A stretch of DNA of 64,000 nucleotides from Candidatus Bathyarchaeia archaeon (GTDB lineage: Archaea; Thermoproteota; Bathyarchaeia; Bathyarchaeales; Bathyarchaeaceae), in the NCBI GenBank assembly GCA_035283685.1, contig DATETJ010000003.1, forward strand, positions 842-64,841. The letters are read 5' to 3'. The notes under the pieces were generated by a model. That model was not told the DNA's origin. It did not search any database and saw only the letters and a program-made list of their open reading frames with translations. The position numbers were made by a program, and so were the translations under genes. Shown here in pieces: positions 863-28,302 of this stretch (the stretch's first letter is position 1; each line of letters opens with the position of its first letter).

Positions 863-1279
863 TTGGCTGAAGATAGGTTAAACAGACTTAATCTATTTGA
901 AGCGGTGGTTTTTGCCCTCTATGGTAATTGGCTGATTTCTCTCCTTGTTGACAAAATAAGTTTTTCAAAATTCCCAGCTTCTTTCAACGTGTTTGGAGAG
1001 TGGTATCAGGCTGTCTGTGTTGGGCTTGCATTTTTCTGTCTGATAATTCTTTTTGCATTTTCAATATTTGCACCTAATTCCGTGAGAAATTGGTCTGTTT
1101 TTGTTATATATACTGGTCACGTTGTTGGGATATATGCAGCGTTCTCCGTTGAGGGTTGGACTCGTTCCAATTTAGTTTTCTTTTTTATTGGTCTTGCCCT
1201 CTTTTGGACAACCTTTGTCATCGAACTTAGAAGGATACGACTGAGTAGGGAAAGAGTCAATGCTCCCCCGCCTACCTGA
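863..1279 (+). CDS. small integral membrane protein (hypothetical)
   Basis: 138-aa ORF with a TTG start and about 4 hydrophobic helices (LFEAVVFALYGNWLISLLV, VCVGLAFFCLIILFAFSIF, VFVIYTGHVVGIYAAF, LVFFFIGLALFWTTFVI). Confidence 0.5.
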   Translation: MAEDRLNRLNLFEAVVFALYGNWLISLLVDKISFSKFPASFNVFGEWYQAVCVGLAFFCLIILFAFSIFAPNSVRNWSVFVIYTGHVVGIYAAFSVEGWTRSNLVFFFIGLALFWTTFVIELRRIRLSRERVNAPPPT

Positions 1280-1441
1280 GAACTTCGACTTTTTTCTCAA
1301 CCCAGAATTTTTGTCTTAATGTGGAGCGCCACAGAAAAAGACAAAATCGAAGCAGGCAGAGGTTGATTTCGGGAAGTGGAAAGGCAAGTTATGAGTTCTT
1401 TAGGTGTGAAGACCTAACTTCCCCATGGCGTGTGTGAGAAG

Positions 1442-2152
1442 TCAGACCAAAATAGATACTTTTTTGACATAATTGTTCCAGACAAATGTTATTACGAGAC
1501 TCAGGTAGAAAGAAAATCCATGAGCAACAACGTTGACTCCAACGCCAACGCTCAAGAATATTTCAGGTGAAAGAAAAATCTGAACAAGTAGCGAAATCAA
1601 AACTAAAAGATTGAATAGGACCATGAGTTTCGTGGATTTTTCTTGGGTTTTGAATTTTTCCCAATTCAAAATACTTAGACCATTGATAAGTGAGAACCCC
1701 AATAAGACTCCCTGAACAGCATAAACAACCCCAGAAGCTCCAAGTGATGGTTGAGAAGTCAAGAAGACCCAAAAGATATTTGATGCAACTGCTGACCCAA
1801 AAGCGCAGACCAAGAAAAATGACTGGATTCTTCTTTTAGTTTCGGATGTCAGACTGCTGTTGCAGACCGCGAACAGAAGCGTATATGCGAAAAGCCCGAC
1901 CATGTTATAAGCAAGATGTATCGGACTCGAATGAACAAAAATAGAAGTCACGATGCCCCAAGGTGTTGCTCGGGACAACTCGAGAATGGAATTTGTAGGA
2001 GGATAAATTGAAAAGCTTATGTAAAGTGCTATACTGGAGACTAGGAGAAAAATACACGCTGAGAGAATTCTTCTGAAATCAAAAACAGTTCTCGAAAATG
2101 CCTGAATGCTCACTCTCAATTTCAGATTATTCTTTTTCACGATTGCAATCAC
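1442..2152 (-). CDS. rhomboid-family intramembrane serine protease
   Basis: Has the TM2 H..N motif (IFVHSSPIHLAYNMVGLF), the catalytic GxSG (LGASGVVYAVQG) and the TM6 His (VVAHGFSFYL). Multi-TM throughout. Confidence 0.75.
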   Translation of the reverse strand: MIAIVKKNNLKLRVSIQAFSRTVFDFRRILSACIFLLVSSIALYISFSIYPPTNSILELSRATPWGIVTSIFVHSSPIHLAYNMVGLFAYTLLFAVCNSSLTSETKRRIQSFFLVCAFGSAVASNIFWVFLTSQPSLGASGVVYAVQGVLLGFSLINGLSILNWEKFKTQEKSTKLMVLFNLLVLISLLVQIFLSPEIFLSVGVGVNVVAHGFSFYLSLVITFVWNNYVKKVSILV

Positions 2153-2226
2153 ATTGTTTGTAGATTTATTCTTTTAGAGCGCGCTAGGTAAACTGAGGAT
2201 TATCTGTCGGATTCAACTGAGAGAGA

Positions 2227-3258
2227 TTAGTCTTTATGCTTTTGTATCTCAGAAAGAGAGTTGATAGTTTCTTTTCGCAATGCAGCCTCAATAAATTCTG
2301 ACTTTACTATTCCCAGAATATCCAAGTTATCTTGAAAGAGTCTCTTTTGGGCATCCTTGAGTTTTTGAAGGTCTTTTTTCTCTTCTTTTGTTTCTTTCGG
2401 TTCTTTCGTTTTCTTCTCGCTGATGCGTGCATGAGACAAACGATGTCTTATTTCCGAAAAGCGCTTTTGTCGGTCTTTGTTTTCTGGAAGCACGAAAATT
2501 GCTTCGAATGCTTTGCCATTCAAATCAAAAGCGATTTTGTAGGCATTCATAAAGCTGTCATCGAAATTGCCCTCGACAAAAGAATCAAGAGATAAACGAA
2601 GATAATGCATAAGCAAGTCAACATCGTTGCGGGTATTTTCATCCGAAATCCTCTTTAGAAATTCATCCTTGATATTTCGTATGAATTTTCCTCTATCACT
2701 TATTCCGAGTTCTCTGTGTAGAATTAGAGTCCTCCATGACATGTTTGAGCCAATTATTGATGTGATACTGAAGAGGAGCATCGTTAATCCGAAAAACATG
2801 TCTGAAGTACGTCCCTCTACCGTTTGCGACAATCCCAATGTCAAAAGCAAGCCAACGAAAAAGATCGAGAAAGTTGGAATCATTGGAAAGTCTCCAAGTC
2901 TTTTTCTTGTGAATAAGTGAACCACTAAAGGTATGGAAACCAAGGAAGCAGCACCCAACCCATACACTGCAAGGTAAACATCAGTAATAGGCACATGTCG
3001 AGCTACCCAATACAACAATGATATTGCTTGGACAGAAAAACACGAAAACATGTAGAAGACATATGTGATGCTCAATGTAGTAGTTAACAGCATTTGCCCT
3101 ATCAACATCATGCAGACAGTAATGGCAATAGAAATGAACAGTAGGTCAAATCTAAAAATCAGCAAAACATTCACTACAATGAACGCTACTGAAAACAAGG
3201 CGAGGTAAGCGTTTACGTTATTGAGAAGGTTTTTTCTTAGACGGGTGAACACATCCAA
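2227..3258 (-). CDS. polytopic membrane protein with C-terminal helical HEPN-like domain
   Basis: The N-terminal ~175 aa hold 5-6 TM helices. The C-terminal soluble part is all-helical and carries an Rx4H string (EIRHRLSHA), followed by a Lys/Glu-rich tail. Confidence 0.45.
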   Translation of the reverse strand: MDVFTRLRKNLLNNVNAYLALFSVAFIVVNVLLIFRFDLLFISIAITVCMMLIGQMLLTTTLSITYVFYMFSCFSVQAISLLYWVARHVPITDVYLAVYGLGAASLVSIPLVVHLFTRKRLGDFPMIPTFSIFFVGLLLTLGLSQTVEGRTSDMFFGLTMLLFSITSIIGSNMSWRTLILHRELGISDRGKFIRNIKDEFLKRISDENTRNDVDLLMHYLRLSLDSFVEGNFDDSFMNAYKIAFDLNGKAFEAIFVLPENKDRQKRFSEIRHRLSHARISEKKTKEPKETKEEKKDLQKLKDAQKRLFQDNLDILGIVKSEFIEAALRKETINSLSEIQKHKD

Positions 3259-3431
3259 TTCATTTTTCCCTCAGGCTATAAGCGTATTAGCTTAGACTAT
3301 CGGATTCGTTCCAGCTCCTGAACCCAAAACGAATCTCGATTGAATACTACCTGCCTGTTCTTTGTGTCAACATAAGGTTTTCCACGAGTCATCATACAAT
3401 TCCCCAAACAGACCTATGCATAATGCCGGAA

Positions 3432-3680
3432 GCTTGTTGTTGACACCTAGAGTAGTTGGGCATCAGCATCCATACAGTCAGGAGTCCGCAAACATGGAAG
3501 TAGTAGTCAACGTACACGCGGCGCAGACTACTACTTCTAAACCTGAAGCACCTCGGCATTACTACAATTTCTATGCAGAAGCTAACGACTCGTAAAAATT
3601 CAGATCGCTATAAACAGTCTGCGCCTGCAAGTTCAACTACAACGGTCCAAGCACAGCCAGCAACACAACCATGTCGGCTT
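3432..3680 (+). repeat. noncoding dispersed repeat, copy A
   Basis: Colinear with 5887-6130. It contains a 51-nt block (3491-3541) identical to 5946-5996, with a 12-bp-stem hairpin at 3497-3537. Confidence 0.8.
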
Positions 3681-4688
3681 TCACGCTATCGCGGCTCTTC
3701 TCAGCACTGCTAAGTCGCCCTCCTCAGGTGAAAGGTCGGTGGGAACAAACAAGTGCCCATTGTAGTAATCCATGCTGCTTATTTCAGGTAAATTGAGCCT
3801 AAACGGATCTTTCTCTTCAGGCTTGTTGCTGACGCCCTTAACGCTATGGTAGTTTCCAGCAATCGTTCTTATCGTGCCTGACTTCCTGTAAATCATTCTC
3901 ACGACGTGATTCATCCGGTCCCCCACGAAGATATTTCCTTCCTCGTCAAGCGACAGGGATATTGGTCCGTCGAATCGCGCCGCTGGATCACTGCCAAAGG
4001 TAGCTTTCAGGGCGTCTCCATCGTCTCCTTCATAACCTGCCTTTCCGGTTCCTGCTAAGGTATTGACCACACGACGTTTCAGGTCAATCAACCTAACCGC
4101 GAAATTCCTGCTATCCAGAACGTAGATGTTACCACCAGGTCCTCTCCTTATGTCGTAGATCCAGCTGAATTTTGCTTCACCAAAATCTACTGCGCCAGAC
4201 TGGAAACCAGATGTGCCATCACCAAGGGTTAACACAGGCTTACCTGTGCCGTCAAACCTCCAAATCTTGCAACCTTTGACCTCGTTCACCCACACTAAGC
4301 ATTCATCGTCCACCACACAGTTGCCAGCATCTTTCATCCCTAATCTGGAACCATCAACGAACAATTCGGCTTTCTTTCTTTCAACATCAATGCGATAAAG
4401 GCGGGCGTCGCCGAAGTTTGAGACTGTAAGGGTGCCATCGGGCAGATTGTCTATGTACATGGGATAATTCAGTTCTGCAACGATGTTAGGCGTGCCCTCA
4501 AAAACTTGACGCGCCGCCACTGTCCACTCGAGTCGATCATCTTCTCCTATGAGACCTAGGAAGTGCTTTTGATGAAAAATTGCATAGTGATTTCCAGCCC
4601 TGTCATGAAAACCGAAATGCGGCAACCCATCCTTCAAGAAGTCCCCTGCTCCGAAGTGAACTATCCTTTCAACGACCCAGTCAGCCAA
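3681..4688 (-). CDS. NHL-repeat beta-propeller protein
   Basis: Shows recurrent NHL-like blades (GNIYVLDSRNFAVRLID, GNIFVGDRMNHVVRMI, GTLTVSNFGDARLYRID). Confidence 0.7.
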   Translation of the reverse strand: MADWVVERIVHFGAGDFLKDGLPHFGFHDRAGNHYAIFHQKHFLGLIGEDDRLEWTVAARQVFEGTPNIVAELNYPMYIDNLPDGTLTVSNFGDARLYRIDVERKKAELFVDGSRLGMKDAGNCVVDDECLVWVNEVKGCKIWRFDGTGKPVLTLGDGTSGFQSGAVDFGEAKFSWIYDIRRGPGGNIYVLDSRNFAVRLIDLKRRVVNTLAGTGKAGYEGDDGDALKATFGSDPAARFDGPISLSLDEEGNIFVGDRMNHVVRMIYRKSGTIRTIAGNYHSVKGVSNKPEEKDPFRLNLPEISSMDYYNGHLFVPTDLSPEEGDLAVLRRAAIA

Positions 4689-4744
4689 AACCGCATCTCC
4701 AAGCCCTCATTAATCCACGCCAGCATATTTAGTTTGATGAACAT

Positions 4745-4935
4745 TACTCCTTCGGACGCCCTCAAACATGAGGCGCAAACCACTGCTTCCAAACAGAAAC
4801 CACTTCAGTGTAATCACCTGACCTAAGCGAAAGTTAATAACATCTGAAACACTCAGACCCGCATTCCAACATCCAAGAAGTTGCTGTAACAAAGCACTAC
4901 ACCAGTCAACACCGCTGAAAAACACAAAACAGCGC
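4745..4935 (+). repeat. noncoding dispersed repeat, copy B (degenerate; lacks the 5' half of the hairpin)
   Basis: Aligns with 5990-6140. The shared 19-nt core AAGTTAATAACATCTGAAA sits at 4830-4848. Confidence 0.7.
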
Positions 4936-4995
4936 CTGTTTCTTTCTGGAAAACTTTATTTCAGTTGAAGCATAAACTGCATTTAGGTTCAAGCA

Positions 4996-5220
4996 ATGGT
5001 CGAAGTCAAGAATCTGAAACTCACAGTTGTCTTAAGGAAAGAAGAAGAGGGAGGTTACTCAGCCCAGTGCCTGGAGCTCCCAGGAGCCATCAGCCAGGGA
5101 GAAACAAGAAAAGAAACCCTCACCAACATCCGAGAAGCCATAGAAGGCTACTTGGAAGCATTCCCAGAAGAGCTGGAACATCTCAAGCGAAAGAGAGAGT
5201 TGGTGCAAATAACTGTCTGA
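4996..5220 (+). CDS. hicB: HicB-family antitoxin (UPF0150-type)
   Basis: 74 aa. The string EEGGYSAQCLELPGAISQGETRKETLTNIREAIEGYLE is typical of the HicB N-terminal fold. An adjacent hicA-like ORF overlaps its stop codon. Confidence 0.8.
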   Translation: MVEVKNLKLTVVLRKEEEGGYSAQCLELPGAISQGETRKETLTNIREAIEGYLEAFPEELEHLKRKRELVQITV

Positions 5221-5440
5221 GAAGCTACCAACCCTTTCTTGGCGAAAAATAATCAAGGCACTCAACAAAGCTGATTTCAAGGTCGTTCATCAAAGAGGCA
5301 GCCACATATTTCTGACGGATGGTAAGCACAAGGTCACAGTTCCACGACATGAAGCAGTAAAGAAAGGTACCCTTCTTTCGATAATGGCTCAAGCAGGACT
5401 AACAAAAGAAGAATTTCTGAAACTTTTGAGAAAAAAGTGA
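5213..5440 (+). CDS. hicA: HicA-family mRNA interferase toxin; no ATG/GTG/TTG start (possible CTG 5213, or an inactivated gene)
   Basis: Not in the ORF track. The frame is open from the stop at 5210-5212 to TGA 5438-5440 and translates as LSEKLPTLSWRKIIKALNKADFKVVHQRGSHIFLTDGKHKVTVPRHEAVKKGTLLSIMAQAGLTKEEFLKLLRKK. This carries the HicA hallmark GSH...VP.H...KGTL. Confidence 0.65.
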   Translation: MSEKLPTLSWRKIIKALNKADFKVVHQRGSHIFLTDGKHKVTVPRHEAVKKGTLLSIMAQAGLTKEEFLKLLRKK

Positions 5441-5528
5441 ACCAAAAAGAAAACTGACCTCTCCCGTAATATTGAAAGATTGGATTCATAACATCCGACT
5501 TGGATAGAATACTCAAGAGGGAAATCCT

Positions 5529-10964: not shown

Positions 10965-11056
10965 TGGAGCCCCGGGCGGGATTCGAACCCGCGACCTACA
11001 GCTTTCTTGAGCCTATGTATACAAGGCTATTGCTCTACCGGCTGAGCTACCGAGGC
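10965..11056 (-). tRNA. tRNA-Thr(TGT) with a 16-nt canonical (37/38) intron
   Basis: The reverse complement reads GCCTCGG-TA-GCTCAGCCGGTAGAGC-A-ATAGC-CTTGTA[TACATAGGCTCAAGAA]A-GCTGT-AGGTC-GCGGGTTCGAATCCCGC-CCGGGGC-T-CCA. A CTTG/CAAG 4-bp helix flanked by 3-nt bulges gives a BHB. Confidence 0.85.
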
Positions 11057-11119: not shown

Positions 11120-11225
11120 TGGTGCCGGGGGCGGGATTCGAGCCCGCGACTTCTGGACTGGGCGTTTGCCCCTTTGTTCTCCAGATTATGAGTCTGGCGC
11201 CCAAACCAAGCTAGGCTACCCCGGC
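11120..11225 (-). tRNA. tRNA-Met(CAT), elongator-type or Ile2-type, with a ~28-nt non-canonical intron 3' of the anticodon stem
   Basis: The reverse complement reads GCCGGGG-TA-GCCT..GGGC-G-CCAGA-CTCATAA-TCTGG-[33 nt where 5 are expected]-GCGGGCTCGAATCCCGC-CCCCGGC-A-CCA. G1-C72 argues against an initiator. Confidence 0.65.
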
Positions 11226-16214: not shown

Positions 16215-16372
16215 TGGTGGGGCCGGCAGGAGTTGAACCTGCGACCTACGGGTTTCTCCTTTTTTTGACCGCTCCAGAACTTCTTCATTCTCACGGTCGT
16301 GAGTCCGCAAACCCGTATTCTTGTGGCTTGCTTTCTGGAGCCCGTCGTCATCCCTGGCTAGACTACGACCCC
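16215..16372 (-). tRNA. tRNA-Trp(CCA) with an 81-nt intron at 37/38 (intron 16254-16334)
   Basis: The reverse complement reads GGGGTCG-TA-GTCT..-G-ACGGG-CTCCAG[81 nt]A-CCCGT-AGGTC-GCAGGTTCAACTCCTGC-CGGCCCC-A-CCA. A CTCC/GGAG helix with AGA and AAA bulges gives a BHB. Confidence 0.85.
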
Positions 16373-17142: not shown

Positions 17143-17271
17143 GTGGGGTTGCCGGCCATAGGGCGTGGGACCCACCCGATCCCTTTCCGAACTCGGCAGT
17201 TAAACCGCGCTCCGTTTTCGGTTCTAGTGTGGTCTTCGGCCATGCGAAGCCGAGAAAGCTGGCTGCCCCAC
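17143..17271 (+). rRNA. 5S ribosomal RNA (stand-alone)
   Basis: Terminal helix GTGGGGTTGCCGGC pairs with GCTGGCTGCCCCAC. Internal CCCACCCGATCCCTTTCCGAACTCGGCAGTTAAAC and GCGAAGCCGAG match conserved 5S loop/helix strings. Confidence 0.8.
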
Positions 17272-25990: not shown

Positions 25991-26026
25991 CCCAAATCAT
26001 AAGAATCGTCAAAAGAGGCGTTGTCA

Positions 26027-26848
26027 ATGGAGCTCCCTGAATTAACTGTTCTGAGCCTGCAAATGGCAAAAGAAACCGTGGGAAGACGAATTGCAGAAGT
26101 CGAGATAGCGAATCCCAAGTGCTTGAACATGCCCTTAGAGCAGTTTAAGAAAACTGTAGTTGGGAAAGTCATTAAATCGGTTGAGAGTAGAGGCAAGTGG
26201 CTTTTCATCAAACTTAGCGCTGATCACGTTCTCCTGTTTAACCCTGGAATGGGTGCAGACGTGATTCACTTTAAGCCAGCCGACAAGTTGCCTGAGAAAT
26301 ATCAGATAAAACTCGTGTTGATTGACAAGACAGGCTTTACCATACGTGTCTGGTGGTTCTGTTACCTGCACCTTATGCGCGAGGATAAGCTCGGTGAACA
26401 CAAACTGGCTGGAAAACTGGGCGTGAACCCTCTTGACAAGAGTTTCACACTAGACTATTTCAAACAATTACTGGCGAAGAAAGGTGGCAATATCAAGACT
26501 TTCCTGCTCGACCAAAAGAATATTGCGGGCATCGGAAACGTCTACGTTCAAGACATGCTTTTCGAAGCAAGGCTACATCCTCAACGAAAGACTTCGTCAC
26601 TGACCAGCAAAGAGACAGAGGCCTTGTACAAGTCAATGAGATCTGAGCTTAACGGGAGCATCAGAATGGGCGGATTAGCCTATGAAAAAGACTTTTACGG
26701 CAAAAAAGGCCGTTACGGCGCAGATCAGTTCAAAATTGCATACAAATCAGGGAAGCCGTGCCCTGTTTGCCACACGACGATTCAGAAGATAAAGACGGGT
26801 TCAACCAGCACTTTCATTTGTCCAAAATGCCAACCTTTAGGCAAGTAA
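26027..26848 (+). CDS. Fpg/Nei-family DNA glycosylase/AP lyase
   Basis: MELPELTV N-terminus (family consensus PELPEV), an H2TH region (NIAGIGNVYVQDMLFEARLHP) and a C-terminal zinc finger CPVCHTTIQKIKTGSTSTFICPKCQ. An alternative TTG start lies at 26021. Confidence 0.8.
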   Translation: MELPELTVLSLQMAKETVGRRIAEVEIANPKCLNMPLEQFKKTVVGKVIKSVESRGKWLFIKLSADHVLLFNPGMGADVIHFKPADKLPEKYQIKLVLIDKTGFTIRVWWFCYLHLMREDKLGEHKLAGKLGVNPLDKSFTLDYFKQLLAKKGGNIKTFLLDQKNIAGIGNVYVQDMLFEARLHPQRKTSSLTSKETEALYKSMRSELNGSIRMGGLAYEKDFYGKKGRYGADQFKIAYKSGKPCPVCHTTIQKIKTGSTSTFICPKCQPLGK

Positions 26849-26875: not shown

Positions 26876-27156
26876 AAAAATCTTATTTCCCGGTTTTCGC
26901 TCTTGTTTTTCCAGCGATGACCTTCTGGTGAGCTATCCCACCGCCACCTCGATGCGAGGACTCATGCAAACGGACCCAACCGAAGCCGGATAGTCCCACA
27001 AAGCTATCCTTTGCTCGTGACGAAGGGCTTACCCAGACATGAGACACGGTGGGCGCGGGCGCGAAAATTCCCGTGTCAGAGAGAGCTCAGCAGAGAGGGG
27101 CGCATCGCTCCAACAATGAAGTTGAGTGTTAGTTTCACGGGAAACAACGCCCGCGA
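26876..27156 (-). ncRNA. unclassified GC-rich structured RNA (~280 nt)
   Basis: No ORF of 60 aa or more. Nested perfect helices: 27054-61/27148-55 (CGCGGGCG), 27070-75/27136-41, and 26937-43/27047-53 (CCCACCG/CGGTGGG). The hairpin at 26976-26989 is CCGGC-UUCG-GUUGG on the minus strand only, because on the plus strand its G.U pairs become A.C. On the minus strand, TATAAAAG sits about 25 nt upstream and a T5 run at 26876-80. Confidence 0.55.
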
Positions 27157-27234
27157 CAGAAAAGAGAACTTTTATAGTTAGCCCCAATGCAACTGTAGGA
27201 AGGCAGGCGTTTCACCTTGGACTTGGAGAAACGA

Positions 27235-28302
27235 ATGGATCTTGTGGCAGGGAACACTCAGGAAGTTGTTACCCTGGAAGAGCTACGCGAACTGCTTAAG
27301 AGTGAGGCTAAGCCGAGAGCCTACTGGGGTTACGAAGCAAGTGGACTCATGCACATTGGCATGGGCTTGGTCTGCGGCTCCAAGATCAAAGAGATGGTGA
27401 AGGCAGGCTTCGACTTCACGATTTTCTTGGCTGACTGGCACTCGTGGATAAACAACAAACTGGGCGGCAACATGGACAACATACGCCTTTGCGGCGAATA
27501 CTTCAAAGAATGCTTCACAGCTTTAGGCATTAAACCCGAAAGTGTACGTTACACATGGACTTCAGACTTGGCCAAAAACATTGAATACTGGGAAAAAGTG
27601 GTAAGAATAGCTAAGAGCGCATCCTTGCAGAGAACTTGGCGCGCCCTCCCTATCATGGGTCGTGAGACAAGCCTAACTGACATGGAAACCGCTTGGTTGT
27701 TTTACCCCTGCCTACAAGCAGCAGACATCTTTCAGATGGAACTCCACGTTGCCTGCGCAAGCATCGACCAACGCAAAGCCCACATGCTGGCTCGAGACGC
27801 AGCAGAAAAGCTCGGGTGGAGAAAACCCGTATGTGTGCACACGCCACTCCTCGTAAGCTTGCAGGGCCTGCAGAAAACAGATAAGCAGTTTGATGAGAGC
27901 GCTGAGATCAACGTTAGGATCGGCTCAAAAATGTCCAAAAGCGTTCCCGAGGGCTGCATTTTCGTGCACGATTCGCCCGAAGAAATCGAGACAAAACTCA
28001 AGGCAGCGTTTTGTCCGCCGAAGCAGGCGGAAGGCAATCCGGTTATGGAAATCGCAAAACTCACCATATTCCCGGAAAAGGGAAGCCTAACAGTAACTCG
28101 TCCATCAAAATATGGCGGTTCGGAGACTTTCAACAGCTATGAAAACTTGGAGAAAGCCTACGTTGAAAGAAAAGTGCACCCTCTTGACCTCAAGAAAGGA
28201 GTCGCGGATTCACTAGTAGAAATTCTCAGCCCGGTTAGAGAATACTTCCGAAAACACCCCAAGAATCTCGAAAGAATGAGGCAGATAGAAGTCTCAAGGT
28301 AG
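27235..28302 (+). CDS. tyrS: tyrosine--tRNA ligase (archaeal type)
   Basis: Colinear with remembered M. jannaschii TyrRS: GYEASGLMHIGMG, FLADWHSWIN, DQRKAHMLARD, KMSKS, GNPVMEIAK and HPLDLKKGVADSL. ATG at 27235 is preferred to the track TTG at 27217. Confidence 0.9.
   Translation: MDLVAGNTQEVVTLEELRELLKSEAKPRAYWGYEASGLMHIGMGLVCGSKIKEMVKAGFDFTIFLADWHSWINNKLGGNMDNIRLCGEYFKECFTALGIKPESVRYTWTSDLAKNIEYWEKVVRIAKSASLQRTWRALPIMGRETSLTDMETAWLFYPCLQAADIFQMELHVACASIDQRKAHMLARDAAEKLGWRKPVCVHTPLLVSLQGLQKTDKQFDESAEINVRIGSKMSKSVPEGCIFVHDSPEEIETKLKAAFCPPKQAEGNPVMEIAKLTIFPEKGSLTVTRPSKYGGSETFNSYENLEKAYVERKVHPLDLKKGVADSLVEILSPVREYFRKHPKNLERMRQIEVSR

Follow-up and report, generated by a model that had tools for sequence, protein, structure and literature searches.

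What does the GC-rich gap upstream of tyrS encode in this 64,000-nt stretch of Candidatus Bathyarchaeia archaeon DNA (hereafter the window)? The gap lies between the gene for an Fpg/Nei glycosylase (26021-26848, +) and tyrS, the gene for tyrosyl-tRNA synthetase (TyrRS; 27217-28302, +; both assigned by Pfam). It contains no credible gene, the only open reading frames (ORFs) being mechanical ones of 40-57 aa, and its GC content is 0.55-0.59 against about 0.45 in the flanks. A preliminary description of this DNA, which was right in calling the region ORF-free and GC-richer than its surroundings, placed there a minus-strand structured RNA that would be either a divergent member of a housekeeping family, with RNase P and signal recognition particle (SRP) RNA as the leading candidates, or a new RNA. 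Of this proposal, a genuine conserved RNA outside any Rfam family has stood, while RNase P, SRP and a new kind of RNA have not. Our analysis points instead to a plus-strand, trans-acting double-hairpin box H/ACA guide small RNA (sRNA) for two uridines of 23S rRNA, a reading to which we give a probability of roughly 85%, judging from sequence, conserved structure and analogy with characterized archaeal guides.

The structured element is a genuine and highly conserved structural RNA. A nhmmer search with the intergenic region recovered it in 41 of the 80 tyrS loci, the best E-value being 1e-39, beside TyrRS proteins that are only ~65% identical. A metagenome scan with a pattern made of the invariant loop nucleotides of the RNA added at least 120 further contigs, and a profile search gave, among the matches listed, 165 copies at 162 loci (131 near full length), by which count the family so far extends over more than 160 Bathyarchaeia contigs. 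At least 97% conservation is seen at 87 of the 242 consensus positions, and the paired positions covary: among 36 genome-derived copies, compensatory changes occur in 22 of the 47 predicted pairs, and when 103 metagenome copies were aligned to the covariance model, 97.1% of the cells were paired and 32 of 52 pairs had changed on both sides. None of 500 shuffles reached the observed values of pairing and covariation, and control structures in which the 3' partner was slid by 1-3 columns left only 34-48% of the cells paired. It is the combination of strong nhmmer matches at such protein divergence, the number of copies, the conserved positions and the covariation that makes the RNA real.

The helices drawn in the preliminary description reappear in the conserved structure: CCCACCG/CGGTGGG as outer helix A, CCTCG/CGAGG as hairpin B, CTCATG/CATGAG as helix C, GGATAG/CTATCC as apical hairpin E, CGCGGGC/GCCCGCG as outer helix F and CCCGTG/CACGGG as helix G; the covariation in both sets of copies bears out the check that it had proposed. 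The interval that it gave (26876-27156) takes in the promoter and most of the RNA, but we estimate that the RNA itself runs from ~26911/26914 to ~27160-27173. Less durable was the pairing that it saw between the 5' and 3' tails, which at -5.0 kcal/mol barely exceeds the -4.3 +/- 0.3 kcal/mol of a mismatched-locus control; we also tried a terminal stem in the main clade and dropped it as marginal. An all-pairs covariation screen for pseudoknots was dominated by shared-ancestry signal and gave nothing robust.

The RNA shows nearly all features that define archaeal box H/ACA guides, which is why we do not regard it as a new kind of RNA. In such guides, a pocket with strands of 5-11 nt lies between a lower stem (H1/P1) and an upper stem (H2/P2) of 5-6 bp that runs from the pocket to a kink-turn (K-turn), an ANA (usually ACA) box 3' of the lower stem and the target uridine are 14-15(16) nt apart, the dominant guide strand is the 3' one, and UNN may stay unpaired (Muller et al. 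2008, PMC2377435). Sheared G.A pairs stack immediately on the upper stem, invariably at a height of 5-6 positions over the pocket (Czekay & Kothe 2021, PMC7991803), the distal G.A pair being 9-10 layers from the P2 base (Majumder 2020, PMC7075261). In the Bathyarchaeia RNA, two stem-loop-stem hairpins, SL1 and SL2, open into pockets with strands of 7-9 and 9-10 nt and of 8-10 and 7-8 nt, respectively. In all 36 copies, exactly 14 nt separate ACA box 1 from the top of the 3' guide strand; for ACA box 2, guide strand and stem contribute 12 nt and a 2-nt spacer completes the same distance of 14 nt from the pocket top. Tandem sheared G.A pairs on each upper stem form what we predict to be an L7Ae site. 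In SL1 (K-turn Kt2, CC-NNU-GA-CG opposite C-A-GA-GG, with no variation at the bulged-strand U, G and A or at the A of the GA facing them), these pairs are G80.A120 and A81.G119 in A1 columns, where U118, G119, A120 and A81 are invariant; 6-7 layers lie under them, and layer 8-9 holds the distal pair. The corresponding pairs of SL2 (Kt3, C-NRU-GA-RG opposite CN-GA-G) are G199.A227 and A200.G226, of which the distal one occupies layer 9. In both hairpins the K-turn points its non-canonical side toward the pocket, as in known H/ACA RNAs, and on proxy rRNAs (Halomicrobium, E. coli) both pockets show bipartite complementarity that leaves U-N or U-N-N unpaired.

A discrete RNA would be driven from its own B recognition element (BRE)/TATA promoter and ended at an oligo-T terminator. 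By analogy with characterized archaeal H/ACA ribonucleoproteins (RNPs), L7Ae would bind each K-turn. Cbf5, together with Nop10 and Gar1, would dock at the lower stem and the ACA box; both pocket strands would pair with 23S rRNA on either side of one uridine, and this uridine would be set in the active site of Cbf5 and isomerized to pseudouridine (Psi).

Which uridines would be chosen? A search of 1.3 Mb of Bathyarchaeia DNA found no rRNA gene, and a plasmid-borne Halomicrobium mukohataei rRNA operon and E. coli rRNA served as proxies; the consensus guide arms were scanned against every uridine of the 5.85-kb archaeal operon. The arms of hairpin 1 (GACGGAC and UACCCAG) had a single best site in it, cuggguu-UA-gaccguc, with 12 of 14 pairs, and the predicted target is the third U of GGGUUUAG, U2586 of 23S rRNA in E. 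coli numbering (GGGUU-U-AG), in the peptidyl-transferase centre (PTC). Likewise, the arms of hairpin 2 (GAGAGAG and UAGUUA) had a single best site there, uaacua-UGA-cccucuu, with 12 of 13 pairs, for which the predicted target is U1917 (E. coli) in the loop of helix 69, possibly together with U1915. No unpaired stretches of the RNA are more conserved than the four guide arms (GACGG, UACCCA, GAGAGAG and UAGUUA), and this holds even for its most divergent members; the non-guide loops vary, the F/G loop freely. Essentially all lineages retain 5-7 pairs between each arm and its target, and one clade extends the complementarity of the domain-2 5' guide arm, with UUGAGAGAG paired to CCCUCUUAA.

A guide of this kind is known from Haloferax volcanii (Hv), where sR-h45 is a double-hairpin RNA with three modified positions: its 5' stem-loop directs Psi2605, two positions past 3-methyluridine (m3U; H. 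marismortui 2619), and its 3' stem-loop directs Psi1940 and Psi1942 in helix 69 (PMC7075261). The predicted Bathyarchaeia targets are the equivalents of Hv Psi2605 and Psi1942, that is, two of the three sR-h45 positions, in the same hairpin order (5' to the PTC uridine, 3' to helix 69). To convert Hv to E. coli numbering, we used the Haloarcula offset that is standard near the PTC, 35 positions; the result agrees with the UUUA context described in PMC7075261. By this conversion, the 5' hairpin of sR-h45 likewise acts on the third U of GGGUUUAG (Hv Psi2605, E. coli U2586) and its 3' hairpin on the helix-69 loop (Hv Psi1940/1942, E. coli 1915/1917). Both RNAs carry two guide hairpins within 200-250 nt, a tandem sheared G.A K-turn in each upper stem and an ANA/ACA box after each hairpin. 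Unlike sR-h45, the Bathyarchaeia RNA carries a 5'-terminal third K-turn hairpin, and its outer helices A (with side hairpin B) and F each enclose a guide hairpin and its ACA box, whereas sR-h45 has a 56-nt linker; moreover, hairpin 2 can pair through A1916 and leave UNN, where sR-h45 leaves UNUN unpaired.

Other H/ACA RNAs are related by rules or by target. The Pyrococcus sRNAs Pab40/Pf7 (three motifs), Pab35 and Pab91 form the same type of RNP by the same structural rules (Muller et al. 2008, PMC2377435): the K-turn tops an upper stem of 5-6 bp, ANA and the target are 14-15 nt apart, and the 3' guide strand dominates. Motif 3 of Pab40/Pf7 guides Psi2016 in helix 69, which is thus a common target (PMC2377435). 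These sRNAs differ in that the helix-69 and domain-V sites are spread over several of them, no outer helices enclose them, and their lower stems have at least 7 bp. In eukaryotes, the small nucleolar RNAs (snoRNAs) snR191/U19 guide both conserved helix-69 pseudouridines (PMC7075261), but with no K-turns, separate hairpins for the two helix-69 sites and no PTC site.

Several observations weigh against reading the RNA as a guide, or against parts of that reading. The lower stems (helices C and G) are 6 bp each, one short of the at least 7 bp required by an RNAMOT descriptor for Pyrococcus and Archaeoglobus RNAs (Muller 2008, PMC2377435); that value is a search descriptor and not a demonstrated functional limit, and outer helix A or F continues beyond each lower stem. 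Unusually, both ACA boxes are enclosed by these outer helices and do not lie in a free hinge or tail, and this could hinder Cbf5. Each duplex with the Halomicrobium proxy contains one mismatch beside or inside an arm (U.U, A.A, A.C); the mismatched positions are A72 opposite 2589, A190 opposite 1921 and U131 opposite 2585, with guide positions in A1 columns. In one clade, the 3' guide strand of hairpin 2 has gained a G, and pairing with the target is weaker. Since hairpin 2 leaves UNN where sR-h45 leaves UNUN, its exact target may be 1917, 1915 or both. From its predicted targets, the Bathyarchaeia RNA is a functional counterpart of sR-h45, the two being compared by targets and described architecture rather than by sequence, a comparison that does not distinguish homology from convergence. 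Finally, shuffled arms reached at least 12 pairs somewhere in the operon in 12.8% (hairpin 1) and 6.5% (hairpin 2) of the trials, so that the score alone is modest evidence and the weight lies in which sites were found. With what we take, as a rough figure rather than a count, to be some 1,400 uridines in the operon, it is very unlikely that both best sites would fall by chance on sR-h45 positions in the same 5'/3' order.

Could an H/ACA-like or multi-K-turn RNP bind the same rRNA without modifying it, as a folding or processing chaperone or in another L7Ae-dependent role? A precedent is snR30/U17, a eukaryotic H/ACA snoRNA that modifies nothing and acts as a chaperone of rRNA folding and processing. 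Such a role would suit the third K-turn hairpin, which has no pocket, as well as the outer helices around both ACA boxes, the short 6-bp lower stems, the mismatches beside the target and the pairing of a single RNA with two distant functional centres of 23S rRNA. However, the 14-nt ACA spacing, the height of the K-turns and the unpaired U between the duplexes are requirements of catalysis, and sR-h45 does pseudouridylate the same sites in Haloferax. We therefore consider a non-modifying particle improbable.

Far less probable still is a divergent RNase P or SRP RNA, the idea that the preliminary description had put first. Archaeal RNase P and SRP RNAs resemble the element in size and K-turns; they are housekeeping RNAs and bind L7Ae, which attaches to K-turns of archaeal RNase P RNA and of the SRP RNA of Sulfolobus. 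The strong conservation of the element would fit, as would its use as an integration target (below), which is common to many core RNA genes. There is also a loose likeness of some strings to the conserved regions CR-IV and CR-V of RNase P RNA, for example GAUGAAGACCCGGUUUACC in the copy at locus L072. Nevertheless, no sequence or structure match was found in either direction and the topology is different. Searches with Rfam 15 gave no family at gathering score at the element within the window, none at E<=10 in a 651-nt search of the locus (archaeal RNase P, RNaseP-T, archaeal SRP and T-box included) and none at the element in 20 homologous loci, which settles the cmscan check that had been suggested; ARAGORN found no tRNA or tmRNA at the element. 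Conversely, the best score of E. coli rnpB against our covariance model was -0.3 bits (E ~0.9), compared with 318 bits from Rfam. In RNase P RNA of archaeal types A, M and T, the S domain is nested within the C domain. The guide RNA consists of two closed domains side by side and forms no P4 pseudoknot from CR-I (GGAAAGUCC) and CR-V (ACAGAA..GGCUUA), nor does it contain any arrangement like that of the Rfam structure line, which puts the P4 3' strand outside P2. Look-alikes of CR-I, CR-IV and CR-V, and with them the idea of a circular permutation, were pursued and given up for the insignificant rnpB match and the differing topology, and a long-range GGGCUU/GAGCUC pairing postulated for RNase P shows one-sided changes only. 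Bathyarchaeota encode all five RNase P proteins, including those that bind the S domain (PMC4919917), and a conventional RNase P RNA is thus to be expected elsewhere in the genome. The SRP variant was rejected because the helix-8 motifs are absent: there is no GNAR/AGCA motif and no GGAA..AGCA, the apical loops are variable, and Rfam RF01857 does not match. An archaeal SRP RNA would have a helix 8 with GNAR tetraloop and AGCA/AGG loops, a helix 6 and an Alu domain. Reading the RNA as an H/ACA guide, by comparison, accounts for every invariant stretch.

We give almost no credence to a cis-acting tyrS leader, such as a T-box-like tRNA sensor reading on the plus strand into tyrS. The RNA shares its orientation with tyrS, which in most loci is the next gene downstream, and its K-turns and purine-rich loops recall T-box stem I. 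Gene context led us to drop this reading: genes for a DUF2178 protein, a beta-propeller protein or a GNAT acetyltransferase intervene in many loci, the RNA is inverted in locus L075, and a separate TATA-like box precedes tyrS. Furthermore, no T-box family of Rfam matched, and no conserved Tyr codon or UGGN element is visible by eye in the alignment; a T-box leader would need a specifier codon, a T-box sequence with UGGN and a fixed place in cis ahead of the gene that it regulates. The intervening unrelated genes, the inversion and the tyrS loci that lack the RNA (about half have none within 3 kb) show that the RNA is a free-standing gene. In the genome of Bathyarchaeum tardum, too, the 3 kb around tyrS hold no copy.

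Equally negligible is an RNA on the minus strand, divergent from tyrS, for which the window sequence taken by itself allows a UUCG hairpin and a TATAAAAG box, neither of which is conserved in that role, whereas K-turns, ACA boxes and rRNA complementarity appear on the plus strand only. Read on the plus strand, the paired columns contain 186 G.U/U.G against 38 A.C/C.A combinations, and the plus strand is further favored by the consensus fold (-104.8 versus -88.8 for minus) and by the single-sequence z-score (-2.9 versus -1.5). It is the ratio of 186:38, together with the BRE/TATA-like block upstream and the T-tract downstream, that places the RNA on the plus strand and overturns the earlier strand call. 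The supposed UUCG hairpin at 26976-89 falls on the plus strand within the upper stem and K-turn of hairpin 1 and is not conserved as a hairpin; the supposed promoter TATAAAAG is TTTTATAG on the plus strand, kept only where tyrS directly follows, and the promoter and terminator assigned to the minus strand were wrong. A strand call made with confidence from a single sequence thus proved mistaken and RNase P-like strings misled, which we note as a caution.

The ends of the RNA can be approximated from the flanking signals. In 112 distinct upstream regions, an A-rich block lies at -38..-34 and TTWAW mostly at -31, relative to the G of an invariant GCGATGA; this is the spacing of an archaeal BRE/TATA promoter and suggests a start at ~26911-26914. 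The covariance model matches 26911-27163 with 213 bits, and of 121 copies, 91 have TTTT within the next 45 nt. Directly 3' of the RNA, TTTTAAGT/TTTTATAG is present only where tyrS follows at once and is lost where other genes intervene, from which pattern it is probably the tyrS promoter (its TATA box) and/or the oligo-T terminator of the RNA. All features are listed in the table.

Table. Features of the predicted guide RNA locus, in window positions.
Feature	Position	Strand	Evidence or remark
BRE/TATA-like promoter block (AAAAATCTTATTTCC) of the RNA gene	26876..26890	+	conserved upstream block in alignment
RNA gene, ~250-260 nt, both ends estimated	26911..27173	+	covariance model, T-tract, G.U counts
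5' K-turn hairpin Kt1, GC-GAU-GA-(CC UUCU GG U)-GA-GC, no pocket	26914..26933	+	conserved pattern
Outer helix A, 5' strand CCCACCG, pairs with 27047-27053	26937..26943	+	7 bp, 5 changing on both sides
Hairpin B, CCTCG-ATG-CGAGG, variable side hairpin	26947..26959	+	covariation
Putative H/ACA hairpin 1 (SL1)	26961..27043	+	covariation, K-turn nucleotides, guide-arm match
SL1 lower stem P1	26961-66 with 27038-43	+
SL1 5' guide strand	26967-75	+
SL1 upper stem P2	26975-81 with 27021-27	+
SL1 K-turn G.A pairs	26982-83 and 27019-20	+
SL1 apical hairpin	26984-27015	+
SL1 K-turn bulge	27016-18	+
SL1 3' guide strand	27028-37	+
ACA box 1	27044..27046	+	invariant, 36/36 copies
Outer helix A, 3' strand CGGTGGG	27047..27053	+	covariation
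Outer helix F, 5' strand CGCGGGC, pairs with 27149-27155	27054..27060	+	covariation
Variable linker after helix F 5' strand	27061-69	+	length and sequence vary; F/G loop not a guide
Putative H/ACA hairpin 2 (SL2)	27070..27141	+	covariation, K-turn pattern, guide-arm match
SL2 lower stem P1	27070-75 with 27136-41	+
SL2 5' guide strand, GAGAGAG core	27076-85	+
SL2 upper stem P2	27086-92 with 27120-28	+
SL2 K-turn G.A pairs	27093-94 and 27118-19	+
SL2 apical hairpin	27095-27114	+
SL2 K-turn bulge	27115-17	+
SL2 3' guide strand	27129-35	+
ACA box 2, two nt past SL2 lower stem	27144..27146	+	both A's at least 97% conserved
Outer helix F, 3' strand GCCCGCG	27149..27155	+	covariation
ANA trinucleotide after helix F	27156-58	+	ACA, AUA, AAA, AGA mixture across copies
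TTTTATAG, oligo-T terminator of RNA and/or TATA box of tyrS	27170..27177	+	conservation pattern, T-tract statistics

Some parts of this anatomy vary among lineages. The pattern of Kt1, GC-GAU-GA-[3-nt loop or short stem-loop]-GA-GC, occurs in 33 of 36 copies, and candidate roles for this pocketless hairpin are an extra L7Ae site, protection of the 5' end or the remnant of a third guide hairpin. Hairpin B is absent or different in divergent members. Compared with nearly all homologues, the window copy has an apical hairpin of SL1 (GGATAG...CTATCC) that is extended by ~10-12 nt; this expansion, which lies above the K-turn, is specific to the lineage. In L072 (232-483), a copy from a GC-rich Guaymas lineage, a 10-bp terminal helix GGUGGCCCCC...GGGGGCCACC surrounds the whole RNA; this copy has no 5' K-turn hairpin, and its box 1 is AUA followed by an insertion.

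The ancestral gene order is pheT - RNA - tyrS, on one strand throughout. In the window, two genes are inserted upstream of the RNA, with the PheRS-beta gene and a methyltransferase gene lying farther upstream, and at other loci it is the DUF2178, beta-propeller or GNAT acetyltransferase gene that separates the RNA from tyrS. The relatives of the window TyrRS are all found in Bathyarchaeia metagenome-assembled genomes (MAGs). One contig labelled Krumholzibacteriaceae bacterium (DATKLC010000064.1, our L004) bears an archaeal tyrS and the guide RNA and is probably mis-binned Bathyarchaeia DNA. In one Bathyarchaeia MAG, a DUF3800-X RNA (Rfam RF02984, 75 bits) lies directly 3' of tyrS (L001, 4636-4707, +). 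Elsewhere in the window, three tRNA genes on the minus strand exceed the 71-position tRNA model: that at 10968-11056 has an 18-nt insertion in the anticodon arm and that at 11123-11225 one of ~29 nt before the T arm, both intron-like, as fits an archaeon, and that at 16218-16372 measures 155 nt. A free-standing 5S rRNA gene (17148-17267, +) lies away from any 16S or 23S gene.

The guide RNA gene is itself a place of integration. On contig L136, a 4,258-bp insert flanked by exact 14-nt repeats, GGCGGGTTTACCCA, interrupts the host gene; the repeat corresponds to the place in hairpin 1 where the upper stem meets the 3' guide strand (element 1168-5516; attL 1245-1258, attR 5503-5516). A tyrosine integrase ORF crosses the left repeat (attL), and the insert also encodes a MazF toxin. 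It carries its own full-length but divergent guide RNA (2261-2510, 105 bits), which keeps all four guide arms and has a G -> U change in K-turn 3; this copy appears to compensate for the disruption of the host gene. Locus L124 (1-1242) likewise holds a truncated host copy, starting at the same GGCGGGUUUACCCA, together with a divergent full-length copy. The arrangement at the two loci indicates that this gene, like tRNA genes, serves as an integration target. A scan of viral contigs found no copy of the guide RNA.

The RNA is thus of a known kind, in all likelihood a box H/ACA guide; it is absent from Rfam 15 and apparently undescribed for Bathyarchaeia, and in the literature searched, we found no paper linking Bathyarchaeota with H/ACA guides. 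Bathyarchaeia, which are among the most abundant archaea and largely uncultured, hereby gain a predicted H/ACA guide with named rRNA targets, and the ~130 near-full-length copies, the truncated ones and a covariance-supported structure could seed a model for the family missing from Rfam. That the combination of two targets recurs in two distant archaeal phyla suggests an old and strong selection on the pseudouridines of helix 69 and next to U2585. It is tempting to speculate, at less than even odds, that the guide for the PTC and helix 69 is ancient and homologous between Halobacteria (sR-h45) and Bathyarchaeia, predating the split of Euryarchaeota and Thermoproteota, that in Bathyarchaeia it became "caged" by extra closing helices and a third L7Ae site at the 5' end, and that its gene came to serve as an attachment site for elements that bring a replacement copy. 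If this holds, the caged architecture may control RNP assembly or RNA stability, or may let one particle serve two distant centres of 23S rRNA, and integrative elements that disrupt the gene yet bring a divergent replacement would point to strong selection for both modifications.

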